A stretch of 64,000 nt of DNA, from positions 1,536,001 through 1,600,000 of the forward strand of contig CBDDCX010000008.1 in the NCBI GenBank assembly GCA_965226375.1, written 5' to 3'. The position numbers and the translations under genes were made by a program. Under the pieces are notes generated by a model. That model was not told the origin of the DNA, did no database searches, and saw only the letters and a program-made list of their open reading frames with translations. Source of the DNA: Longimicrobiales bacterium (GTDB taxonomy: Bacteria > Gemmatimonadota > Gemmatimonadetes > Longimicrobiales > Gaopeijiaceae). Shown piece after piece: positions 19,422 to 31,532 of the stretch (within the stretch, counting starts at the first letter, position 1; each line of letters begins with the position of its first letter).

Positions 19422-19892
19422 ATGTCTACATCTTCCAGCTCGAGCGACCAGGTCCTCCGGCGGGCACTCGAGGCGCGTGGGCATCGGTTCACAGATCAGC
19501 GTGCGGCCGTCTATCGGCTCCTTGCTCACACCACCGTCCACCCCACGGCGGACGAAGTGTTTCTCGGTGTACGGGACGAGGTGCCCGGAATTTCTTTGGC
19601 CACGGTATACAAGAGTCTCGAGACCATCGTGTCTTGCGGTCTGGCCAACAAGCTGAGTCACGCCGACGGCTCGGCCCGTTATGATGGCAGGACCGATCCG
19701 CATCACCATGCCAGATGCATCACCTGCGGGTCCGTGTCCGATATTCCAGGTGAGCTCCATGATTCCGACCTCTCCTGCGTCAGTGCGGGGACCGACGGCT
19801 TCCAGGTGACCGGATATCAGCTCGAGCTCACCGGATATTGCCCTGAGTGTGCTCGAGAGTCGGATGGCGAGGCGATCGCCGCCGTCGGCTGA
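19422..19892 (+). CDS. Fur-family regulator, PerR-like
   Basis: HPTADEV, ISLATVYKSL, HHHARCxxC and C-terminal CxxC. Confidence 0.88.
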   Translation: MSTSSSSSDQVLRRALEARGHRFTDQRAAVYRLLAHTTVHPTADEVFLGVRDEVPGISLATVYKSLETIVSCGLANKLSHADGSARYDGRTDPHHHARCITCGSVSDIPGELHDSDLSCVSAGTDGFQVTGYQLELTGYCPECARESDGEAIAAVG

Positions 19893-21435
19893 CACCACGC
19901 TGGACCGTCTCGCCCGGCTCCCAGCGATCAGGGGCGAGACCCTGCTGGACGATCTCTCCCTCGCTCCCTACCGCAGTGCATCCGGACCCGTAAGCATTGC
20001 ACCGATCGCTTGCGTCCGACCGCTCGACGAGGACGATCTCTCTTCGCTCTTGTCCTGGGCCGCGAATGAAGGGATGTCGCTGATCCCGCGGGGCGCGGGC
20101 ACCGGAATGCCCGGTGGCAACGTGGGTCCCGGAGTGACGCTCGATCTCAGCACGTCGTTTACCGGCGTCGGCCCCCCTCAGCAAGAAGATCGGACGATCA
20201 AGGTCGGTGCTGGCGCCGTGGCTGCCGACGTAGAGCGGGCTGCACGATCCGTGGGACTCTTTCTGCCACCCCTCCCGTCGAGCGCCGAGAGGTGCACGAT
20301 CGGCGGCATGGTGGCGAACAACGCGGCGGGAGCACGCACCTACAAATACGGAGCGATTCGTGATTGGGTGCGGGAGCTGGAGGTCGTGATGCACGATGGA
20401 TCACAGCTTCGCTTGGTCCGGGGAAAGCGAGGACCCGGTCTGTTCGAAGCCCTGCATCGATCCCTTCAGGAAGAGATGGGTTCCGGCCCCACTTCCTGGC
20501 CATCCGTGCGTAAGAACTCCAGCGGGTATGCCCTCGATCGCTTCATGCCACAAGGAAATCCCATCGAGCTCGTGGTGGGAAGCGAGGGGACATTGGCCGT
20601 GGTCACATCGGTCACGCTCGACCTGGAGCCGGTCCCGCAAGCCACCGCGCTCGCCCTGGTGGCGGTGCACAGCCTCGACGACACCCCATCGGTGCTCGCC
20701 GAGGCGGCCACTCTGGGCGCCTCGGCCTGCGAATTCTTCGGTCGCCGCTTCCTGGAGATCACGTCCATGTCATCGCACCCCGTGGTCGGGCCGACCGTTG
20801 CGGATGCCGCGGCGGCGTTTCTCGTCGAGGTCGACGGAACGGTCGATGAAGTCAGCCGCGGTTTGGAAGCGTTGCGACGACTCGGCCGGGAGCTAGGTTC
20901 ACCTGCCGTCACGGCGTTGGACCGCACCGACCAGGAGCTTTTGTGGGAGATCCGACACGCCGCCAGTCCCGTGATCGCCGGGTGCGCCGATCGTGGCCTT
21001 CGGTCGACGCAGATCATCGAGGACTCAGTCGTCCCTACCGAGAGCTTGGGCCGATACATCACACAGCTAGACGGGATTCTCAGCAGGTGGGAGACGGATG
21101 CCGTGCTCTTCGGCCACGCCGGTGACGCGAACGTCCACGTGAATCCTCTCTTGGACGTCACCGACGCGGCATGGCGTGAACGAGCACGGGGGATTCTGGA
21201 GGATACCACGGACCTCGTTGCAGACCTGGGCGGAACGCTCGCCGGAGAGCACGGGGACGGGCGCATTAGGGCGCCACTCCTCGAGCGGATCTGGGGGGAC
21301 ACTCTTACCGGCGCGTTTTTCCGCGTCAAGGATCATTTCGACCCTGGGGGCATCCTCAACCCGGGAGTGATCGTCCCCCTTCCCGGCCAGGACCCGCTGG
21401 AAGGACTGTGGCCCGAAGCAGGCGGGTGGGCGTGA
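19864..21435 (+). CDS. FAD-linked oxidoreductase (GlcD/D-lactate dehydrogenase family)
   Basis: PRGAGTG, CTIGGMVANNAAG, GSEGTLAVV, GHAGDANVH, GEHGDG, DPGGILNPG. Confidence 0.88.
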   Translation: MARRSPPSADTTLDRLARLPAIRGETLLDDLSLAPYRSASGPVSIAPIACVRPLDEDDLSSLLSWAANEGMSLIPRGAGTGMPGGNVGPGVTLDLSTSFTGVGPPQQEDRTIKVGAGAVAADVERAARSVGLFLPPLPSSAERCTIGGMVANNAAGARTYKYGAIRDWVRELEVVMHDGSQLRLVRGKRGPGLFEALHRSLQEEMGSGPTSWPSVRKNSSGYALDRFMPQGNPIELVVGSEGTLAVVTSVTLDLEPVPQATALALVAVHSLDDTPSVLAEAATLGASACEFFGRRFLEITSMSSHPVVGPTVADAAAAFLVEVDGTVDEVSRGLEALRRLGRELGSPAVTALDRTDQELLWEIRHAASPVIAGCADRGLRSTQIIEDSVVPTESLGRYITQLDGILSRWETDAVLFGHAGDANVHVNPLLDVTDAAWRERARGILEDTTDLVADLGGTLAGEHGDGRIRAPLLERIWGDTLTGAFFRVKDHFDPGGILNPGVIVPLPGQDPLEGLWPEAGGWA

Positions 21436-23048
21436 CGAGTCCACGCCTTCTACTGCTAGGGCTGGGTGCGCTACTGGCCAGTTCCCTGGCCTGGAGGCCC
21501 GGGGCTTCCGTGGATGCCGTCCCACCGACGTCGGCACTTGTGGAAAGCCAGGCGGAGACCAGCACACAACCCCCCTCTCCGCCGAGCCCCGAGATCGAAG
21601 CCCTCCGCCGCGACCTTTCCGGGTTTCTGGACGGCACGCGGCTGCGCTCGGCAACGGCAGCTCGGCAAAGGGGCGTCCTCGTCGTGTCGCTCGACCGGGG
21701 CGATACGCTGTTCGCCAGGAACGAGAATCTTCTCCTGACCCCGGCCTCGAACATGAAGGTCGTGACCACGGCAGCCGCACTCCACTTTCTGGGCCCATCC
21801 TTCACCTATCCGACGTTCTTGCTAGGCGATGGCGTGGTCGAGGACGGCCACTTGCAGGGTGATCTGATCCTCTATGGAACCGGCGACCCGGGGATCTCAG
21901 ATCGATGCTTCCGTACCCGTACCCGTGTGTTCGAGGAGCTGGCGGAACAGCTGACCGCGGCCGGAATAACGCACATCGATGGCAACATTGTGGGGGACGC
22001 GACCTATTTTTCGGGGCCGGACCTCGGGCCGGAATGGAATCCGCGCGATCTGAACGAGCGGTTCGCGGCACCGGCCTCCGCCCTCTCGTTCAACGAAAAC
22101 ATCGTCACGTTGCGCATCATCCCCTCACCACGGCTCGGTGGCGTGCCCACGGTCGAGACCATCCCCACCGGTTTCCCGCTGGAGATGAACAACACGGCCG
22201 AGACCGTCGCCGGCAGGCCACGACCGAGGCTGTGGCTCGACCGACCCACGCCCACATCGCTCATACGCATCGAAGGCGAGATGACGCGGGGCGGTCCGGC
22301 CATCTGGAGGCGACTCACGGTGCCCGATCCAGCCCTGTTCGCCGCCCGCGCCCTGCTGGAGGTACTGGAATCGAGCGGTTTCGTCGTGAACGGTGAGGCA
22401 CGTGCGGTCCACAGAGCCGCCCGCTCACGCATTACCGACCGGGAAGCGTGGGTCCCGAGCCTTCCGGAAGACGAGGAGCCGCGGATTTTGGCCCGCCATA
22501 CGTCCCCGGAGATGATCCAGTATCTGAACGTGGTCAACCACGAGAGTCACAACCTGTTCGCCGAGACCATCTACAAGACCATGGGCAGAGTCGTCATGGG
22601 CCAGGGATCGTTCGAAGGGGGGGCCCGAGCAGTCCGCCGCTTCACGGCCGGCGAGGTCGGGCTGGACGATAACGATATCATCGCGGTGGACGGATCCGGC
22701 CTCTCCGAAAGCAACCGTGTAACGGCGGGTGGACTGGTGGCGATCCTACGCTACGTGGCCAGATCTCCCCAATGGGATGCATACCTCTCCACCCTCCCCG
22801 AAGCTGGTCGATCCCTACGCCGCATGTACCGGACCCGAGCGGCCAGGAATCTACGTGCCAAGACGGGCACGATCGACGGGGTTTCGGCCCTGACGGGCGT
22901 GGTCTCGGCGCGGGACGGTGAAAGGCTGCTCTTCAGCATCCTCTCGAACGAACTCACGTCCACGGGCGCCGCCAAGCGAGTGGAGGATCGAATCGGATCG
23001 AGGTTGTCGGACTTTCAACGGGCTGTACCCGGGGTACCCCCGCCCTAG
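21432..23048 (+). CDS. dacB: D-alanyl-D-alanine carboxypeptidase/endopeptidase (PBP4, S13)
   Basis: PASNMK (SxxK), SHN (SxN), DGSGLS, AKTGT. Confidence 0.93.
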   Translation: MTSPRLLLLGLGALLASSLAWRPGASVDAVPPTSALVESQAETSTQPPSPPSPEIEALRRDLSGFLDGTRLRSATAARQRGVLVVSLDRGDTLFARNENLLLTPASNMKVVTTAAALHFLGPSFTYPTFLLGDGVVEDGHLQGDLILYGTGDPGISDRCFRTRTRVFEELAEQLTAAGITHIDGNIVGDATYFSGPDLGPEWNPRDLNERFAAPASALSFNENIVTLRIIPSPRLGGVPTVETIPTGFPLEMNNTAETVAGRPRPRLWLDRPTPTSLIRIEGEMTRGGPAIWRRLTVPDPALFAARALLEVLESSGFVVNGEARAVHRAARSRITDREAWVPSLPEDEEPRILARHTSPEMIQYLNVVNHESHNLFAETIYKTMGRVVMGQGSFEGGARAVRRFTAGEVGLDDNDIIAVDGSGLSESNRVTAGGLVAILRYVARSPQWDAYLSTLPEAGRSLRRMYRTRAARNLRAKTGTIDGVSALTGVVSARDGERLLFSILSNELTSTGAAKRVEDRIGSRLSDFQRAVPGVPPP

Positions 23049-23055
23049 TGTTCGC

Positions 23056-23295
23056 CTAAGAAGCCCGACCTAGAGCTGAGCGCAATCGTCTGCGCAACTC
23101 GACGTCAGACATGGCGGCGAGCGCCCGTTCCGCCGTGCCCGAGCTGTTCCAGCGTACGTCCACGAGGCTCACACCATCGTCGGCGGCGCCCTCCACATGG
23201 AGGTGCAGGTAGTAGCGACCCTTGTAGTCCGTACCCGACTCCGATCGCACGGTCGCCACCCAAGCGCTTCCGTTTTCGTCCAGGAATTCAGTCAT
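23056..23295 (-). CDS. Small hypothetical protein (79 aa)
   Basis: MTEFLDENGSAWVATV...ELRRRLRSALGRAS; lies 47 bp downstream of the AraC-type gene on the same strand. Confidence 0.65.
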   Translation of the reverse strand: MTEFLDENGSAWVATVRSESGTDYKGRYYLHLHVEGAADDGVSLVDVRWNSSGTAERALAAMSDVELRRRLRSALGRAS

Positions 23296-23342
23296 GAGAT
23301 TGGATTGAAGGTGATCGTTTCGGACCACATCAGGCGCAGCGA

Positions 23343-24146
23343 TCAGGCGACCGAGATGCGCGACGTGGTCGAAGTCTCGAACCCACAATCTCGCAGAAAG
23401 TGTCTGAGCACGAAGGACAGCACCCCCCGCTCGGCCACCGTCGTGGGCGTTGCGCCGGTAAAACCCTTCAGGGCCCGTCGGAAGGCCGCACCGGACGAAT
23501 ATTCCAACTGGCGACTGACACTCTGCCCGGTCCGCCCGGGATCCCCCAGCCAATGCCCCGCATGGAGGAGTCGAGACCACACGAGGAGGCGTCCGATAGC
23601 CGGCAGACCGGTCCTCTTCAAGCAAACGCTAAGGAAGGGTCGCGACAGGCCCATGAGTTCGGAGAAGCCCTCGGCCGACCAGCACTTGTGAACCTGGTCC
23701 AGGACGAGCCGTAGTGCCTTCGACTCGCGTGGCGTGAGGTCGGGGCTGACCTCCCGCAGAACGCGCGAGGTCACACCTCGTTCTTGAGCCTTGTCGACAC
23801 TTCGGCGCAGGCGCCACGCCTGATCCTCACTGTTCAGGACTACGAGGCTTCGGAAGCCCAGGCGCCCCACCTCGAACAGTGTTCGTGGATCCTCCTTGTC
23901 GCCGGCCAAGAGCACGAATCCCACGCTCGGGAACTGACGGCGCACCCTCAGAAGCCGCTCCAGTCCACCGGGCCCCCATCCGAGCGATGTCAAATCGACC
24001 ATACACACACTCACAGGTCGCTCTCGAAGTGACAGTGCCAGCCAACCAAGCGTTCTGGCCTCGGCAACGTCATGCACGGTCGAGAGTGCCTCTCGGAGGC
24101 CGGATTGCACCTCGGGATTCCGGGTAAAAGTGCTTACAAGTGCCAT
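23343..24146 (-). CDS. AraC-type transcriptional regulator with degenerate receiver-like N-domain
   Basis: C-terminal double HTH (WSAEGFSELMGLSRPFLS...VSRQLEYSSGAAFRRALKGFTGATP); N-terminal REC-like pattern (VCMVDL...VRRQFPSVGFVLL). Confidence 0.82.
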   Translation of the reverse strand: MALVSTFTRNPEVQSGLREALSTVHDVAEARTLGWLALSLRERPVSVCMVDLTSLGWGPGGLERLLRVRRQFPSVGFVLLAGDKEDPRTLFEVGRLGFRSLVVLNSEDQAWRLRRSVDKAQERGVTSRVLREVSPDLTPRESKALRLVLDQVHKCWSAEGFSELMGLSRPFLSVCLKRTGLPAIGRLLVWSRLLHAGHWLGDPGRTGQSVSRQLEYSSGAAFRRALKGFTGATPTTVAERGVLSFVLRHFLRDCGFETSTTSRISVA

Positions 24147-24151
24147 GACCT

Positions 24152-24205
24152 TCGGAAAAGGTATACCCCTAGTCGGAAATGATTGCGGCACCCAAAGATG
24201 CCGCA
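24152..24205. promoter_or_regulatory. Candidate operator region between divergent AraC gene and peptide gene
   Basis: TCGGAAA direct repeats at 24152 and 24173 (21-bp period) flanking GGTATACC; inverted repeat TGCGGCA-N8-TGCCGCA at 24184-24205. Confidence 0.45.
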
Positions 24206-24278
24206 TCCACCTTATTAACGAGCTATACCGTCCAGTCCCCCCTCACCAGAGCCCATCTTCGGGAAGGAACCCGGTCTA

Positions 24279-24413
24279 ATGACGAAGCTTCGCCTCTTTT
24301 TCGCCGTCGCAGCCCTCTCGTTCGCGTTGAGCGCGTGCTCATCGCCCGCGGGCCTGGACTGCGCTGCCGGAGACAGCATGTGCCAGACACTCGCTCCGGG
24401 TGGCAACGGTTAA
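24279..24413 (+). CDS. 44-aa exported/lipoprotein pro-peptide (not in the ORF track)
   Basis: GGGAAGGA RBS at 24261-24268. MTKLRLFFAVAALSFALSAC-SSPAGLDCAAGDSMCQTLAPGGNG*: basic n-region, hydrophobic h-region, LSAC lipobox. Confidence 0.8.
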   Translation: MTKLRLFFAVAALSFALSACSSPAGLDCAAGDSMCQTLAPGGNG

Positions 24414-26224
24414 GGGCCCTGCGCTTCCGTTGAAACCAGCTGGTCCCGCATAGAACTCAACTCACTACGTACCCCCTCGATATCTTCGAGGGTCGTGGTA
24501 TCAAAGCTCGCACCGGCATCCTCGGCCACGGGTTCTCCCGCCCTGAGGGCTTCGAGTGCAGCCTCTGCCTGGAAGAAGATCTGGTGGTTGCCGTGCTCTT
24601 CGGAGTGCGTCTTCGCTTCGGTCATCCAACGTCCGGCGAGTTCGATATCTCCGAAGAGGCCGAAGGCTTGGCCTCGATTCAGAAGCAGTTCGGAGACCAT
24701 GAAGGACGGCCCGTTTCGCCATCCAGTCTCGTCCACGGCTTCGAGTCGATCCTCGAACTGTTTGCGACGGCCCAGCCGAGCCTCGATGTAGGCCAGGGCT
24801 TGTAGCGCATAGACCTTATAGCGGAAATCCTCCGTACGATGGGCCACCACCGTGTACGCGTCTTCCGCCGAGCCGAGCTCCCCCACCTCGACGAACACCC
24901 AAGCCAGGTCCGTCAGGGCGTGGAGCTGGTGCCGCTCGGTCGGATGGAGGCGAACGGCCTCCCACCCGTGGTGGATAGCCTTTCCGTATCGACCGGACAA
25001 CTGCTCGTCGGTCATGAGGTCGTGGTGGCCGAGTCCCTGGACATAGCCGTCACCGTCAGATTCTCCCCACTCGAGGCTCTGACGATGTAGCTCGAGGGCC
25101 TTAGGCAGATTTCCCTTCTCACGGGCGGTGTTCCCGAGCCCGTTCAGGGCCAGTGCGGACAGCCTGCCGTCGCCGAGGGCCTCACCAAGGTCCTGGGCCA
25201 CCCCATACCATTGCTCGCTATCCTCCCAGGCGCCGAACCGGCGATGCGCTCTACCGAGGAAACGGGCGGCGGGGCCGGCGATGGCCGCCGATCCACAGGT
25301 CATGGCGACCTGGTAGGCGAGGCGGAAGATCTCCCGGGCTCCATGCAGGTGTCCGAGCATGTCCACCCGGTCGCCCAACTCGAGGAGCGATCGGCCCAAC
25401 TCCACCCCGTCACCCGAGCCGAGGGCCTCCAGAACCGCGCTCCAGCTCTCGCGCTCGGGATCACCCGCGTCCACGGCGTCCAGCTCGCACTTCACGCCTT
25501 CGACCTGCTGTCGAAGCGCTTCGGGATCCATGGTGAGCTCTTCATCCAGCGCGGAGCGCACAGCCCGGGCCACCAGGAAGCGGGTGGCAATGCGGCGATT
25601 CGTCTCGGCATCGTTCTCCCGTCCCTCCAGGTCTTTGAGGACCGCCCATCCGGAGAAGGTCTCGCCTGCCGCTGGATCGGAACTCTTGCTGAAGCGCTTG
25701 GGACCCGTGGCCTTACGGTCCAGATCTTGATGGAGAACCACGGCCGCCGCCTCACCTGCGACGAACATCAACTCGTCGGTGACATCCACGGCCAATCGCT
25801 GTCGAGGGGTCAGCGAGTCCACGATGAGGAACCAAGCCCTGGTCCCGTCACTGCCCATAGCGACGCAGCAGGAACTGCGAACACCAGAGATCGGGATTTC
25901 TCCGGCCCGCTCGATATCCGGCTTGTCGAGCAGACCCGGTACGCCCTTACCCCACGCCACCCTGCACGCCTCTACCGCGAAGTTACGTCGTGGGGGCTTG
26001 CCCACGAGATCGAGCAGGCAGTGCACGTGAACCAGACCGGGCCCGTACTCATCGACCCATACGACGGCGGCCCGATCGGCCTCCAGCAACTCTTGCGCAC
26101 ATGCGAGATGCCCCAAAAGGCAGGAGCGTACAGGGTCTCCGCGGTAGAGCGCCGCGATCTCCTCTGACCGCTTTGCCCGCCCACTACGGTAATCTGAGAG
26201 TCGTGGAACGTTCGAAGTAGACAT
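24410..26224 (-). CDS. TPR-repeat protein with N-terminal GAF-like domain
   Basis: C-terminal TPR-like helices (ALALNGLGNTAREKGNLPKALELHRQSL, ALTDLAWVFVEVGELGSAEDAY). N-terminal GAF-like pattern (ADRAAVVW...VRSSCCVAM...WFLIVDS...DELMFVAGEAA). No HTH seen. Confidence 0.8.
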   Translation of the reverse strand: MSTSNVPRLSDYRSGRAKRSEEIAALYRGDPVRSCLLGHLACAQELLEADRAAVVWVDEYGPGLVHVHCLLDLVGKPPRRNFAVEACRVAWGKGVPGLLDKPDIERAGEIPISGVRSSCCVAMGSDGTRAWFLIVDSLTPRQRLAVDVTDELMFVAGEAAAVVLHQDLDRKATGPKRFSKSSDPAAGETFSGWAVLKDLEGRENDAETNRRIATRFLVARAVRSALDEELTMDPEALRQQVEGVKCELDAVDAGDPERESWSAVLEALGSGDGVELGRSLLELGDRVDMLGHLHGAREIFRLAYQVAMTCGSAAIAGPAARFLGRAHRRFGAWEDSEQWYGVAQDLGEALGDGRLSALALNGLGNTAREKGNLPKALELHRQSLEWGESDGDGYVQGLGHHDLMTDEQLSGRYGKAIHHGWEAVRLHPTERHQLHALTDLAWVFVEVGELGSAEDAYTVVAHRTEDFRYKVYALQALAYIEARLGRRKQFEDRLEAVDETGWRNGPSFMVSELLLNRGQAFGLFGDIELAGRWMTEAKTHSEEHGNHQIFFQAEAALEALRAGEPVAEDAGASFDTTTLEDIEGVRSELSSMRDQLVSTEAQGP

Positions 26225-26323
26225 CTACACCGGAATAAATAGCTTGTGGGGGGATCACTCCAAGCTAGGCGCCCCGAGTTGGAAAGACAACGGTGACGTT
26301 GACCCACCCCTCACGCCCTTTGA

Positions 26324-27310
26324 ATGACCCCTGATCAAGCCGAGGATCGGCCAGGAAGCCAAGCAGCGCCCGCTTCCCGGGTACTCGAGCCCACGTTTCG
26401 GGTCGACATCGGCCTGGTGACACTCTGTGTCATCTGGGGGGTGAACTTCTCGGTCATCAAGGTGGCCCTGGTCGAGATAGAACCTCTCGCCTTCAACGCT
26501 CTCCGCTTCCTCCTCGCCTCCGCGACCCTGTTCGTCTTGTTGAGATGGAGGGGGCCTGTCCCCATTCCACGCCGAGAACATTGGGTGCGGGTGGTCCTTC
26601 TTGGTCTCCTCGGCAACGTGGTATATCAGTTCCTGTTCATCTTCGGCCTCGACGGCACCCTTGCCGGTAACGCCGGCCTCGTCCTGGCGACGACGCCCGT
26701 GTGGACCCTGGTCCTATCCACCGTGCTGGGACAGGAACAGCACACGGTGGCTGTGTGGCTCGGTGTGCTGGCAACCCTGGGGGGCATGGTCTTCGTGGTC
26801 GCTGGCGGGGCCGGTGCCGCGGGCTACTCCGGCGGTATCCCGAGGGGCGATCTACTCCTGATCGCCGCAGCCGTCACTTGGTCCGTCTACACGGTCGGAG
26901 CGCAGGATTTGACGCGCCGCTACGGTGCCCTGGCCGTGACCTCGTGGACACTGTGGGTCGGCACCATAGTCCTCGTGGCGGCCGGCGCCTCGGCAGTAGG
27001 GCGTATGGATGTTCGCGCCGTCTCGCCCATGGCATGGACTGGAGTGGTCTACGCGGGCGTCCTGGCCATTGCGGTCGCGTATTTGCTGTGGAATTACGGC
27101 TTGGAGCACATCGGCAGCGCACGGACCTCCGTATTCTCGAACCTGGTGCCTATCGTGGCACTCATCACCGCCGCCATCTGGCTCGACGAAAGACCCTCCG
27201 CTCTGCAGATGGTGGGTGCAGCAATCATCATCGGAGGGGTGTGGATGGCTCGGGTGGCAAGGGCCAGAGAGGGAGAGTCCGCCGGAGAGGCGGCAACCGA
27301 AGGCCTCTAG
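26324..27310 (+). CDS. DMT/EamA family transporter
   Basis: IWGVNFSVIK, two EamA repeats, about ten TM segments. Confidence 0.92.
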   Translation: MTPDQAEDRPGSQAAPASRVLEPTFRVDIGLVTLCVIWGVNFSVIKVALVEIEPLAFNALRFLLASATLFVLLRWRGPVPIPRREHWVRVVLLGLLGNVVYQFLFIFGLDGTLAGNAGLVLATTPVWTLVLSTVLGQEQHTVAVWLGVLATLGGMVFVVAGGAGAAGYSGGIPRGDLLLIAAAVTWSVYTVGAQDLTRRYGALAVTSWTLWVGTIVLVAAGASAVGRMDVRAVSPMAWTGVVYAGVLAIAVAYLLWNYGLEHIGSARTSVFSNLVPIVALITAAIWLDERPSALQMVGAAIIIGGVWMARVARAREGESAGEAATEGL

Positions 27311-27314
27311 CCTT

Positions 27315-28112
27315 CTAGCCCGGCGAGCCCGACTCGAGCCTGGGATGATGCCGAACCTCGGGGAACTCGTACACGATAATCCCCTGGTTGGTCACGTCGG
27401 AACGGACTCTGAGCCCGTCGTCCATGCCCTCCAGCACGCTCTCGGCCGCAGCCAGGGACAGGTTGAGCGAGGCGGCCACTTCGGTCACGGTGAGGGTCCC
27501 CCCCTTTTCGGTGGCCAGAAGCAGCACGCGACGCTGTAGCCGCGTCATCAGGGCTCTCCGGCGATCCTGACGCGCTTTGAGCCCCCACCAGATGGTGCCG
27601 GTCCCGGCGGCCCCCAGTACGCTGCCCACAGCCACGGCCTCTAGTGCGAACGAGATAATACCGACCGAGATCATCAGCGCTGCGCCTAGGACCATACCCA
27701 CGCCAATCGTCCTCCGGACAATTCCCCTTCGGGGAAGCCCCTCGTCGGCCCCGAAGCGAGGGCGGGCACCAACCGGGCCGCCCCAGGCAGGCGCACGGGC
27801 CGCACCGGGTCCCAACACCGCCGCATTCTCCCAGCCCAAGCCGCACTGCGGGCAAATGCGGTGTTTTCGGCGAGCCAGCCAGTAGGCCAGTCCCCCCAAT
27901 CCGTACGTAAAAAGGGACACGCCGATGAGCAGACCCATGTGTCCGGGCCGCCTGAAATACTCGATGCCGTTTCCGACGTAGGCACAGCGCGGGCAGTTCC
28001 GCACGCCCATTCCGACCGGACGAACTATGGACCGAGATGAGACCGCCACCCCACAAGTGGGACAGGCGGTCTCATGCTCTCTCAGATGCTCACCACAGGT
28101 AGAACAGCGCAT
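27315..28112 (-). CDS. Membrane protein with zinc ribbons and C-terminal winged-helix-like domain
   Basis: CSTC/CPTC, CPRC...CPQC, three hydrophobic segments, C-terminal GGTLTVTEVAASLNLSLAAAESVL...IVYEFP. Confidence 0.7.
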   Translation of the reverse strand: MRCSTCGEHLREHETACPTCGVAVSSRSIVRPVGMGVRNCPRCAYVGNGIEYFRRPGHMGLLIGVSLFTYGLGGLAYWLARRKHRICPQCGLGWENAAVLGPGAARAPAWGGPVGARPRFGADEGLPRRGIVRRTIGVGMVLGAALMISVGIISFALEAVAVGSVLGAAGTGTIWWGLKARQDRRRALMTRLQRRVLLLATEKGGTLTVTEVAASLNLSLAAAESVLEGMDDGLRVRSDVTNQGIIVYEFPEVRHHPRLESGSPG

Positions 28113-28208
28113 TCAGCCTCGACGCAGGAGTCTTCCTCCAAGGTAGACACTCGATACTACGTGTTCGTTCCGGCAAAGATTCAGCCCTTTCACCGTCCCG
28201 CTCGGGTC

Positions 28209-30395
28209 CTAGAACAACCGCACCAACTTGAGACGCAGCCCCGCCTGAGGGGCAGCCACTCCACCCTCCCCGCCCGCCAAGCTCAAGGCCAATCCGCCCA
28301 CTCCGCTTCCCAGCAAGAAGTGTGCACCCGAAGACGACCAGAGCCGTCCATCGACGTGGAAATCCCCTACCGTGATGACGGTGGGGGCTAGCGAGTAGGA
28401 CCCGAGGCCCTCCGTAATGGTCTCGACCAAATCGACGCCGGGGTACTCGAGCATCGGGCGGACCGGGAGCAGGCTGTTGCCCGAGAGCTGGTCTTCCACA
28501 GCGACCGCAGCATTCCAGTCCGAGAACAGATCTTCCCAGGACGAGCCCGTCACCGCTTCAACGTTGTCGATTCCTGTACGCGTGGTCCGGGTCAGCGACC
28601 CCAGCAGAGCGTCGCTTCCCGCCTGATCCCTCAGGTAACGTAGGTACATCCACCCGGCACCCCGTTCTCCGAGCGTCCCCTGGCCGGTAACCACGATCAA
28701 GCTCACGTCAGCTGGATCCGAGAGAAACTGATTCGCTCTTCGCCAATTACCCTTCTGGTAGTCCTCCGCCTCGGAGCTTCCGCGTCGACGCAGTTCTTCC
28801 CCGACAAGGTCCTCACCCATCTGGGCCAGTCCCTCGGAGAGCCACAACGCATCGGCACGCTCACCGCCGAGGTTGATGATCCGTTCGTTGTGGTGGATCA
28901 TGTGTTGGAGCTCATGTGCGAGAACGGCCGGTACGGTGCTTTGGATGAGGCTCAGGCTCTGTACGTTCCCATACTGCCCCGTGGGATCGGGGACCATGAC
29001 GTAGAAGACCTCAGCCGCGTTGCTGTTTTCGGCCTCCGTGAACAGGTCGAGGCCGAAGAAGAACCCACCGACGAACTCACCTGAGCCCGGTGTTGACAGC
29101 CGGTTGACGCTGGGGGTGAAGAGAATGATCACTTTGTCGTTGTCGTCTACGTCGGACGTAGCTCCGAAGACACTCGTGTCCACCGTGTAGATCGGGTCGT
29201 CGAAGAGCGTGCCAAAACGCTCAATATCTTCCTGTGGAAGGCTGGCTAGCACCTCGACATCGACATACAGCATGGCTCGCTCCGAGGTCATCCGGAGCTC
29301 GGCCGTGACCTGATCGAACTCGCCGTCGCCGCGCACGACCTGAAAATCTCTGCGATCCCCAAGGTCGGGCGCTCGCTCTGAAGGCGAGAGAGCGGGTTCC
29401 TCTCCCGCCGATCGCTTTTTCCTGAGGAGCTGCTTTTCGAGACCTCTGAGGAACACTTTCCAATTTTCGCGTGCGGAGCCGGTTCCAGCGGAAGGGTTCG
29501 TGTCCACACGCGACGGCATGACCATGCGGGCCGGCGGAGCCACACCGCGCGACGCCACGCCCTGGGGCGTCTGCCTCAGACCCGTCAGCCGATAGTCGAA
29601 GCGCGCCGCGCCGATCGTGCTTACCGACTGGGCCACGGCCAGCCAGTTCCCCGCCGCGAGACGGACACACGAAGGGGCCTCTTCGACGACCACGGTCGTG
29701 TCGCCGCCGAAGTCGAAGTCCAGCACCTCGCCGGAGGCCTGAACGGCCAATGGGAGGACACCGCTCACCTCGCCTCCCAGCCGCACCGACACATCCACTT
29801 CTCTGCTGGGCAGACACGCCGGGACCTCCACGGACATCTGCGTCGGCTCAGCCACGAGCACGGATCCACGAATCCCGGAGAACAGAACAACGTTGTGAGA
29901 CGCAATCGCGCTGAAGTTGTCTCCCTCGAGAGTGATGACCTGCCCGGCATCCGCAGCGGGCGTGGAGAGCGAGGTGAGCTGCGGAGGTAACACGGCCCAC
30001 GCCTCGAATTCGACCAGCCGCTCCGGTTGGTCTCGAAGGCGTGCCTCTACACGGTAGACTCCCAGCGCCGCACCCAGACGCAACTGCACGGTTGCGAGCC
30101 CGGTGGAGTCGCTGTGTGTGGTGGCCGGCTCCAAGACGGCCCCGGAGCCCTCGACGACCGTCCAGTCGACCACCACGTCCTCCGCTGGTCGCCCATCACC
30201 GAGTTGTTGAACGGCCACGATGAGGGGATCGATGAGCAGCTGGTCGGTCGGTCCGAATTGGCCGCTCCCCGACACGGCCACCAGCTCGACCTCCGCCGTG
30301 GGCGGTTGAGTCGGGCCGTCCTTGGAACAGGCCACGATGCTCAGGGAGGTGACAAGGGTGACTCCGGCGAGGAGTCTGTGTAGAAGTGTGTCCAT
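28209..30395 (-). CDS. Lipoprotein with Ig-like and IPT/TIG domains and a gluzincin (HEXXH) metallopeptidase domain
   Basis: IVAC lipobox; Big-like domain; TIG (GQVITLEGDNFS); VLAHELQHMIH plus WLSEGLA third ligand. Confidence 0.8.
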   Translation of the reverse strand: MDTLLHRLLAGVTLVTSLSIVACSKDGPTQPPTAEVELVAVSGSGQFGPTDQLLIDPLIVAVQQLGDGRPAEDVVVDWTVVEGSGAVLEPATTHSDSTGLATVQLRLGAALGVYRVEARLRDQPERLVEFEAWAVLPPQLTSLSTPAADAGQVITLEGDNFSAIASHNVVLFSGIRGSVLVAEPTQMSVEVPACLPSREVDVSVRLGGEVSGVLPLAVQASGEVLDFDFGGDTTVVVEEAPSCVRLAAGNWLAVAQSVSTIGAARFDYRLTGLRQTPQGVASRGVAPPARMVMPSRVDTNPSAGTGSARENWKVFLRGLEKQLLRKKRSAGEEPALSPSERAPDLGDRRDFQVVRGDGEFDQVTAELRMTSERAMLYVDVEVLASLPQEDIERFGTLFDDPIYTVDTSVFGATSDVDDNDKVIILFTPSVNRLSTPGSGEFVGGFFFGLDLFTEAENSNAAEVFYVMVPDPTGQYGNVQSLSLIQSTVPAVLAHELQHMIHHNERIINLGGERADALWLSEGLAQMGEDLVGEELRRRGSSEAEDYQKGNWRRANQFLSDPADVSLIVVTGQGTLGERGAGWMYLRYLRDQAGSDALLGSLTRTTRTGIDNVEAVTGSSWEDLFSDWNAAVAVEDQLSGNSLLPVRPMLEYPGVDLVETITEGLGSYSLAPTVITVGDFHVDGRLWSSSGAHFLLGSGVGGLALSLAGGEGGVAAPQAGLRLKLVRLF

Positions 30396-31390
30396 CACCG
30401 AGGAATGGTCGAGAACGCCAGAAGCTCCAGAATCGGACTCCCGGTCAGGGTCGCGGCTCCGGTTCTGACACGTCCGACTACCCGGATACGTTCCAGCGGA
30501 CTCAAGCCCTCGGCCTCCGGGAGCCGCTCAGGCGGGATGGCCACATAGACGAACGCACCAGCTCCCCGGCCGGTTTTGGTCAGGAGAAACGGCTCTCCTT
30601 CATAGAAGTCCGTGCGGATCTTCTCCGCACGCTCCAGGGAGATGAATTGCACATCCCATTGCAGGACCCGGCCCCGGTACTCGAGGGGTGCAGCAACAAC
30701 GTCTTCGAAGCTGACGTCCGTAAGGACCGTGGTCTCTCCCTCGGCCACGGTGCCCTGCGGAAGCCACAACCATCCGTCCATCCTGACCCTGGCCCAGTTT
30801 CCCTCTCTTGCCAGGATCCTGAGGTTCGCCCCGGGTACGGCCGAGGCCAAGGTGTCTCCGTCCGGAGTGCTGAGGATGGCAGCATTGACCTCTCCACTGA
30901 TGGTCCACTCATCGGCGAGAACAACGTCCGTCCCCCCGCGGACCCCTCCCGGCGGCTCGTCGAGTGCCACGGACGGACTCCAGATCCAAGCCCTACGCCG
31001 CACTCTGACCCAGCCAGACACCCGCTCCACTTCCTGTAGCAAGGTCCCTTCTTCCAAACGGCCCAGGACGTCGCCGGATGGAGTGGCGCGAAGGTTCTCA
31101 CCCTCCGCGGCCGACACCACCAGATCGAAGTCGCCGCGGCCGCCTACCTGAAGCGACTGGGTCCAGACCCAACCGGCCAACTCGAACTCGAGCCAATCGT
31201 CTCCGGTGGCCAGGATATCAAGCGTCGTTCCGGGGGCGAGCTGACCCAGCAAGGTCCCGTTGGCCTGGGCCCGAAAGTTCTCGTCGGCCGTCACGGTTCC
31301 GCTCTGTCCAGAGAGACCCTGGGCCAAAATCGTCAGACCGACGCCGAAGAAGACGGTAGTGGCCCGCAATCGCTTGAAATCCGCGCTCAT
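30395..31390 (-). CDS. Secreted protein with repeated bacterial SH3-like domains
   Basis: Signal peptide and three ENxR...G..L..L.....W....GW/AW repeats. Confidence 0.75.
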   Translation of the reverse strand: MSADFKRLRATTVFFGVGLTILAQGLSGQSGTVTADENFRAQANGTLLGQLAPGTTLDILATGDDWLEFELAGWVWTQSLQVGGRGDFDLVVSAAEGENLRATPSGDVLGRLEEGTLLQEVERVSGWVRVRRRAWIWSPSVALDEPPGGVRGGTDVVLADEWTISGEVNAAILSTPDGDTLASAVPGANLRILAREGNWARVRMDGWLWLPQGTVAEGETTVLTDVSFEDVVAAPLEYRGRVLQWDVQFISLERAEKIRTDFYEGEPFLLTKTGRGAGAFVYVAIPPERLPEAEGLSPLERIRVVGRVRTGAATLTGSPILELLAFSTIPR

Positions 31391-31532
31391 TTTCCTGAAA
31401 CGATCCTCGACAGATGGTGTTGAAAGGGTGATCTTCCGGCCCTCTGGAAGGGGCCTGACGCCACTTGCACGAATGTGTTCCGGCCGGTGGCGGTCGTCAA
31501 ATACCACTAAACGAAACGTCGAACCAGCTTTT

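Follow-up and report, generated by a model that had tools for sequence, protein, structure and literature searches.

A conserved lipoprotein-signal micro-gene in a Rap-Phr-like cassette of Longimicrobiales, with a Leu-type heptapeptide allele and a matching change in the predicted receptor

Signalling by peptides that are read inside the cell by TPR proteins has been described for Firmicutes, and the signals NprX and PapR are heptapeptide-sized. According to the accessible text of the respective studies, precursors of Rap-Phr-type systems hold the mature peptide in up to six copies, and 211 of 2,734 are of the SPII type (PMC9765709), RRNPPA propeptides have 10-100 aa and lie within -60 to 400 bp of the receptor (PMC10075063), and Rap-Phr specificity shifts via transient peptide duplication (PMC5199041). 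The accessible text of a structural study describes a 3-helix bundle and an anchor between RapJ Asp192 and PhrC Arg2, with a compensating exception in RapG (PMC3601965). No paper on a system such as the one reported here was found in the mostly open-access literature covered.

The window, i.e. the whole stretch of 64,000 nucleotides that was analysed, contains a 44-codon micro-ORF with a single copy of the unit LAPGGNG. The features of the locus are as follows.

23343 to 24146, reverse strand: regulator with a receiver-fold domain and an AraC-type HTH; likely start 24146
24150 to 24183, no strand assigned: conserved non-coding direct repeat, predicted operator of the AraC-type protein; half-sites 24152-24162 and 24173-24183, 21-bp period
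24261 to 24268, forward strand: Shine-Dalgarno-like GGGAAGGA, 10 nt 5' of the ATG, from the sequence
24279 to 24413, forward strand: precursor gene of 44 aa; residues 1-19 as predicted Sec/SPII signal, Cys20 as predicted lipidation site, a linker that holds Cys28/Cys35, and a single heptapeptide unit
24279 to 24338, forward strand: predicted signal peptide and lipobox LSA-C, from lipobox pattern and hydropathy
24360 to 24383, forward strand: Cys-X6-Cys loop of the linker, optional and likely disulfide-bonded
24390 to 24410, forward strand: LAPGGNG, the heptapeptide predicted to act as ligand; present once here and in 2-4 copies in precursors that are nearly identical
24410 to 26224, reverse strand: predicted receptor, 604 aa; GAF-like domain at about 31-170, followed by three helices (206-270), seven pairs of TPR helices (273-543) and a cap

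In this cassette of Longimicrobiales (Gemmatimonadota), the pseudo-receiver/AraC regulator gene is divergent from the lipoprotein-signal precursor gene, which in turn converges on the gene of a cytoplasmic GAF and TPR protein. The earlier note had linked the micro-ORF to the TPR gene and proposed a search for sister micro-ORFs beside other TPR genes. That link was borne out, since a precursor was found at 118/118 evaluable receptor loci, defined by at least 33% identity, a match up to residue 500 and at least 350 nt downstream, with the window counted in. The detector required a lipobox, a hydrophobic window, a basic N-terminus, the opposite strand and closeness to the receptor stop. It recovered a precursor at 64/68 distinct evaluable loci and in 49/51 further rows (48/50 once one locus fetched twice was removed), compared with 9/1233 long ORFs of the same genome, the locus itself among these. 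The six loci missed by the detector have a precursor on hand reading, and one of these precursors, L073, is frameshifted. Broken precursors beside intact-looking receptors were seen at L073:5781-6060 (frameshift) and L075:5620-5960 (early stop, at a locus that the detector had scored as positive); they could reflect a loss of the signal-deaf-producer kind or assembly errors. The AraC-type gene was divergent from the precursor at 64/65 loci with enough DNA, and the receptor and precursor genes were convergent at every locus.

The cassette has a fixed chromosomal place, with a zinc-ribbon neighbour at 93/97 loci, EamA at 69/97 and a small upstream gene at 46/59. The zinc-ribbon membrane protein (window 27315-28112, reverse strand) adjoins the receptor gene, which may be plain synteny. 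The receptor was found at E <= 1e-60 in 93/314 genomes of the family, many of which are incomplete, and its relatives at 79-83% identity come from Longimicrobiales records. In other families of the order or class (L015, L016, L021, L023, L025, L069, L070), distant TPR relatives, with up to 11 matches per genome, have convergent lipobox micro-ORFs that carry one C-terminal motif ending in NNN or GSGG. At L015-L018 the AraC-type gene shares the strand of the receptor and is located upstream of it.

Translation of the micro-ORF agrees with what the earlier note had described, namely 44 aa with a 19-aa signal ending in LSA, Cys20 and a mature part of 25 aa, which includes Cys28-X6-Cys35 and a Gly-rich end. 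Its ribosome-binding site had been called strong; GGGAAGGA is present, but the 10 nt spacing is on the long side. The stop of the precursor gene overlaps that of the convergent TPR gene by 4 nt. The lipoprotein-type signal was called by lipobox pattern and Kyte-Doolittle window, not by SignalP, and on these measures the precursor shows the basic n-region, hydrophobic h-region and lipobox Cys of a bacterial lipoprotein (Sec/SPII), as had been proposed. The Kyte-Doolittle value was 2.48 for the precursor and -0.82 for the TPR protein. Signal length was 19-22 aa in 114/114 precursors (exactly 19 in 79), and all 114 have a lipobox and none an Asp at +2. Signal peptidase II (Lsp) and LolA families are encoded in the same genome.

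Compared with five relatives, codons 1-37 of the precursor gene differ at 10-13 codons synonymously and at 1-6 non-synonymously. This is the coding-type conservation that the earlier note had called for, and because of the synonymous excess the ORF can be regarded as a gene under purifying selection. On comparative sequence grounds, the 44-codon ORF is a real, conserved gene. Two runs from two studies yielded contigs that cover it and show no difference, and one of these runs may be where this DNA came from. Two RNA runs of one study gave short contigs over the start of the AraC gene and over the TPR gene and none over the micro-ORF, and such contigs cannot show expression. The description of the ORF as unannotated holds, as the exact 44-aa sequence was absent from a collection of 15 billion proteins in which the adjoining TPR protein was present; Pfam gave no match for the 44-aa precursor. 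A sigma-70 promoter scan returned 0 sites, and a terminator scan returned one terminator-like match, which is within chance. No second precursor of this type was detected among 9 short lipobox ORFs with an RBS in the genome (90% complete), which has one receptor and one close AraC-type gene.

Across the precursors, the conserved part is a 7-residue unit repeated 1-10 times and not the CX6C loop. Among 66 precursors, 46 had tandem units of period 7, one had period 6, and 19 had a single or irregular unit. Position 1 of the unit (n=62) was His in 40, Tyr in 13, Gly in 5, Ile in 3 and Leu in 1, and position 3 was Pro in 53 of these 62. A count over 80 precursors gave, inside the repeat runs, 407 extra codon states that are synonymous versus 81 extra amino-acid states, and thus the peptide rather than the DNA is what the repeats preserve. 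The loop had been put forward as a defining feature, a role that it does not have: 114 distinct precursors contained two extra Cys in 50 cases, none in 63 and one in 1, the spacing ranged over 4-10 with CX6C in 23, and the pair was gained or lost 6 times on the receptor tree. The proposal that the two Cys form a disulfide gains from the same counts, since two-or-none in 113/114 precursors suggests such a bond. The Cys pair was commoner in single-unit precursors (14/39 versus 4/61).

Near-identical precursors repeat LAPGGNG three times (P0122), four times (P0145) or twice (P0144/P0146), and P0123 has LGPGGNG four times. The register of the unit is therefore LAPGGNG and not TLAPGGNG, so that the tail proposed earlier as a released signal is likely the signal, shortened by one residue. 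The repetition in near-identical precursors also makes the Leu unit a maintained allele; LAPGGNG was retained at 1-4 copies although signal and linker had diverged between precursors. Decay or assembly collapse as the origin of the single Leu unit was ruled out by the matching contigs and the multi-copy near-identical precursors. Receptor P0127, putatively paired with precursor P0122, differs from the receptor of the window at two residues, and copy number of the unit likely varies within the species. Both same-genus genomes have six copies of HNPGGNG, which is also the unit of most sister alleles. At L162:1074-1377 two tandem precursor genes, both with IIPGPNT, lie between regulator and receptor, a whole-gene duplication and not unit repeats. 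The precursors of L004, L074, L099 and L197 mix units (HSPGSGN/HSPGSQN; His and Tyr starts) and are possible intermediates of a specificity shift.

The predicted receptor has no signal peptide or N-terminal hydrophobic stretch by hydropathy. Its model was folded from P0002, one residue off the protein of the window, with a pLDDT of 90. Residues 31-170 or thereabouts form an alpha/beta domain that a language-model search placed closest to clusters of GAF proteins (score 0.97), an assignment based on secondary structure and that search, with no GAF listing in the TPR-dominated fold searches. No other part of the receptor is as well conserved as this GAF-like region (38/126 columns at >=90%). A short stand-alone protein at L026:235-700 matches solely the GAF-like region, residues 25-173. 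Arg321 was present in 111/112 receptors and Arg328 in 112/112. Residues 209-547 of the model align to residues 4-370 of RapH (Z 22.6, rmsd 5.6, 326 aligned), and NprR aligned with Z 21.9. Since eukaryotic LGN scored higher than RapH (Z 25.1, rmsd 5.2, 314 aligned), the likeness of fold is generic and does not by itself point to descent from Rap. A profile match to the Rap of pLS20 spanned 36 positions with an E of 0.00066, and generic TPR proteins ranked far above it. No HTH was found in the receptor by Pfam or in the model, and a Pfam scan matched no toxin family in the receptor or the cassette neighbours.

The regulator start chosen by the ORF finder, 24206, would run through the DNA motif. 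HTH_18 was found in 57/57 regulators, and the N-terminal domain aligns to a receiver domain (Z 16.0, rmsd 1.8, 118 aligned). The signature of response regulators consists of an acidic pair after beta1, an Asp in beta3, a Ser/Thr after beta4 and a Lys after beta5. The beta3 Asp (Asp51) was present in 53/57 regulators, and the other positions hold Thr/Arg at 8-9, Ala/Arg at 81-82 and no conserved Lys at 103-106. The protein thus resembles a phosphorylatable response regulator in its receiver fold but lacks most of the phosphorylation-site residues.

AraC-family operators can be built as 21-bp direct repeats, a spacing for which the literature covered gave no confirmation. A motif common to 112 upstream regions lies directly 5' of the regulator start, and its self-similarity peaks at 21 bp (5.85 of 11, versus 2.3-4.6 at other offsets). 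The reading of the motif as the coding N-terminus of the regulator was rejected, as invariance falls on what would then be the third positions of codons; one homologue, L141, has an in-frame ATG at the upstream motif. When the operator matrix was run over the genome, one full site was found (51.0 bits), the next scoring 8.3 and the shuffled top 13.5, with no second site above shuffled background. With one full operator in the genome, no regulon beyond the cassette was identified.

TPR A-helices line the groove of such proteins. In 62 precursor-receptor pairs, the receptor columns most tied to the unit were 478/479 (Tyr1), 472 (position 3), 436 (Asp4), 361 (position 5) and 369 (Asn7), and the top columns for His1, Asn6 and Gly7 were 98, 239 and 238, outside the TPR repeats. 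Five of the eight distinct top columns fall on TPR A-helices, which hold 20% of the residues (p 0.01). The A-helix columns run in reverse order, from TPR6 back to TPR3, toward Arg321/Arg328, as an extended peptide would lie. The rules, read from 61 pairs, were checked in 41 pairs fetched afterwards, which are kin of the first set: Tyr1 with Gly/Ser478 held in 9/13 versus 3/28, Leu/Ile3 with Leu472 in 10/10 versus 0/31, Asp4 with Cys/Ser/Gly436 in 20/20 versus 1/21, Ser5 with Asp361 in 13/17 versus 6/24, and Asn7 with Asp369 in 16/22 versus 2/19. The perfect tables for positions 3 and 4 are mostly kinship, since position 3 changed once and position 4 three times. In independent-pairs tests on the tree no single rule reached p < 0.05; Tyr1-478 gave 5.4 pairs in the same and 0 in the opposite direction of 8 (median p 0.06).

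A further rule, found after looking at the data, concerns receptor residue 475, which was Asp in 85/85 receptors with a His- or Tyr-starting unit and in 0/8 with a Leu-, Ile- or Val-starting unit. Omitted from this count were 8 units that start with Gly (Asp in 4, Glu in 3, Asn in 1), L077 (receptor misaligned after about residue 470, likely a frameshift), L075, L095, L170 and seven precursors that did not match the pattern. Loss of Asp475 with Leu/Ile/Val units had 4 independent origins (4/4 pairs, sign test p 0.125). Column 475 alone among 46 columns conserved at 95% follows the unit start in this way, and random clade sets of like sizes gave such a column in 0/3000 draws, with branch lengths not matched. 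Sixteen rows were read later, the omitted ones included, and Asp475 was found in 9/9 further His/Tyr units of the usual pattern and Glu in a further Ile unit. The exception to the rule is L165, a Tyr-starting unit with Gly475. Close receptors with a residue other than Asp at 475 are P0004 (Glu, together with Asn516), P0006 (Gln, together with Arg483 and Asn516), P0140 (Asn) and P0141 (Asn).

The receptor of the window carries Gln475 (GAC to CAA) together with Leu483Arg, Tyr516Asn and Lys519Gln in TPR6-7, i.e. Gln475, Arg483, Asn516 and Gln519. Asn516 was also seen in a separate Ile lineage, L087/L106. This receptor has 43 private changes, compared with 6-20 in four relatives; 6 of them are at predicted groove positions, a number which alone is not clearly above expectation. 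In the TPR region pN/pS was 0.39 on its own branch versus 0.19 on that of a relative (Fisher p 0.03), and in the regulator it was 0.11. In the sister alleles LAPGGNG goes with Gln475/Asn516 and HNPGGNG with Asp475/Tyr516, in receptors that are about 80% identical. As far as sequences can tell, the TPR protein has changed in step with the unit at the level of residues. In this lineage Leu has replaced His at position 1 and Asp475 of the receptor is gone, so that it likely has a different dialect from its HNPGGNG sisters.

Taken together, the micro-ORF likely encodes the precursor of the signal in a peptide-receptor circuit of a bacterium with two membranes, here re-tuned to a new variant of the peptide. 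The precursor would be exported by Sec, lipidated and sorted by Lol, and proteolysis ahead of position 1 of each unit would free the heptapeptide LAPGGNG. The peptide would then be imported into the cytoplasm, where it may bind directly in the TPR groove, with position 1 near TPR6-7 and the C-terminus near Arg321/Arg328 of TPR2. Binding would make the TPR protein let go of the AraC-type regulator, an anti-activator step as in RapF-ComA, and the freed regulator would act on the repeat, activating the precursor gene and repressing its own, with positive feedback. This whole explanation, from the exported lipoprotein to the regulator freed onto the repeat, seems to us rather probable. The mechanism is weakest in the sign of control and in what its output would be beyond the cassette. 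Release and re-entry are harder than in Bacillus because of the lipid anchor and the two membranes, and no protease or importer tied to the cassette was found. The genome encodes two family-5 peptide-binding proteins. A candidate processing protease is encoded at a distance of 2 kb (window 28209-30398, reverse strand), namely a large predicted lipoprotein with Ig/TIG domains, an HExxH motif and a weak Peptidase_M30 match.

The same genes could serve a cell that talks to itself, the tethered precursor being cut in the periplasm and the unit returning to the same cell to keep time or to monitor lipoprotein export and envelope turnover. The lipobox of all 114 precursors, always without Asp at +2, the single cassette at a fixed chromosomal place beside the zinc-ribbon gene, and a sole full operator that is the cassette's own would all suit such a loop. 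We nevertheless consider it unlikely, as there is little reason for a private loop to diversify, and dozens of lineage-specific units with matched receptor changes and 1-10 copies are the outcome of shared-signal selection in Rap-Phr systems, going by the accessible text of two studies (PMC5199041; PMC9765709). The TPR protein might instead be a cytoplasmic effector, a growth brake or a means of kin discrimination acting through its GAF-like domain and neutralised by the cognate peptide, with the AraC-type protein merely supplying the antidote. High conservation of the GAF-like region (38/126 columns), which has no known target, and the position of the only strong site of the regulator ahead of the precursor fit this reading. 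It is very improbable in view of the broken precursors L073 and L075 beside intact-looking receptors, which may be assembly errors, of a cassette that is patchily absent (present in 93/314 family genomes) yet not mobile, and of the failure to match any toxin family.

That the intact lipopeptide is a surface ligand with the disulfide loop as its active part had been suggested in the earlier note. The coming and going of the two Cys together (113/114) and their enrichment in single-unit precursors speak for it; the lack of the loop in 63/114 precursors, its spacing of 4-10 and the co-variation of the receptor with the unit speak against it, and a receptor without an export signal cannot meet a surface ligand, so this suggestion has scarcely any plausibility left. 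Enterococcal lipoprotein-derived pheromones are cut from the signal peptide, and tandem cores resemble multi-core RiPP precursors. The SPII-type signal here would allow a pheromone cut from the signal peptide itself, or the gene could encode a multi-core RiPP precursor, a RiPP-like precursor having been raised earlier as well. Both are highly improbable: the signal peptide of this genome is the same as that of G001, and the two differ in the unit and in receptor residue 475, and no maturase family was found among nine neighbouring proteins scanned (19849 to 31507), with trans-acting enzymes outside that scope. The nine neighbours match only transport, cell-wall, oxidase, Ig/SH3 and regulator families.

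If the preferred reading, a peptide signal shared between cells and read by the TPR protein, is true, a widespread and hardly cultured group would have a means of communication, and such signalling in a diderm phylum would require a way of its own to release and import a precursor that is held by a lipid anchor. Beyond the earlier note, relatives carry the unit in tandem copies, and the cassette also takes in the divergent AraC-type gene and the conserved DNA repeat; the class of gene escapes annotation when the unit is single. What is new here is the apparent co-change of peptide and receptor at the level of alleles, and with LAPGGNG and HNPGGNG in such similar receptors the locus offers a sharp test of the reading. 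More tentatively, Gemmatimonadota may possess an undescribed family of peptide languages between cells: multi-copy heptapeptides on a lipid anchor would pass through both membranes and reach a cytoplasmic GAF-TPR receptor, a readable code would tie residues of the receptor to positions of the peptide, and this lineage would stand for a completed His-to-Leu dialect switch that a single pocket change, Asp475Gln, has fixed.

In RRNPP/RRNPPA systems the receptor is cytoplasmic with 5-9 TPR helix pairs and adjoins a propeptide of 10-100 aa with a secretion signal; here seven pairs and a cap are predicted, next to a 44-aa propeptide with a 4-nt overlap. The propeptide gene of the Bacillales branch lies immediately 3' on the same strand, and the genes here are convergent in all loci; the 'downstream' gene of PMC9765709 was taken as co-directional. 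The receptor, at 604 aa, exceeds the 250-500 aa of that family, and the host is Longimicrobiales instead of Firmicutes. For these reasons of host, orientation and length the cassette was not filed as RRNPP; the Z and E values given above speak neither for nor against common descent with the Rap/NprR/PlcR receptors. With NprR-NprX and PlcR-PapR it shares a heptapeptide-sized signal that would be read by a TPR groove, but those receptors have their own HTH and this one has none. The closest parallel is Rap-Phr of Bacillus, the branch of that family without an HTH, and within it above all the anti-activator pair RapF-ComA; there, too, a TPR protein of the cytoplasm is encoded next to a small precursor that is exported. 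The three helices before the TPR domain align with the Rap N-terminus, the presumed target has a receiver fold as in RapF-ComA, and Asp475/His1 resembles the Asp-basic anchor Asp192/Arg2, as far as the accessible text of PMC3601965 describes it. In contrast to Rap-Phr, the host is diderm, the genes are convergent, the receptor has 604 aa and an extra GAF-like domain, a lipobox in every precursor and repeats are the rule and not the exception, and the presumed target is a cassette-encoded pseudo-receiver/AraC protein; no specific sequence homology emerged from the comparison. The locus is thus a real gene in an undescribed Rap-Phr-like cassette of a diderm phylum, present as a Leu-type allele whose receptor has changed to match, and by analogy the cassette would work like Rap-Phr.
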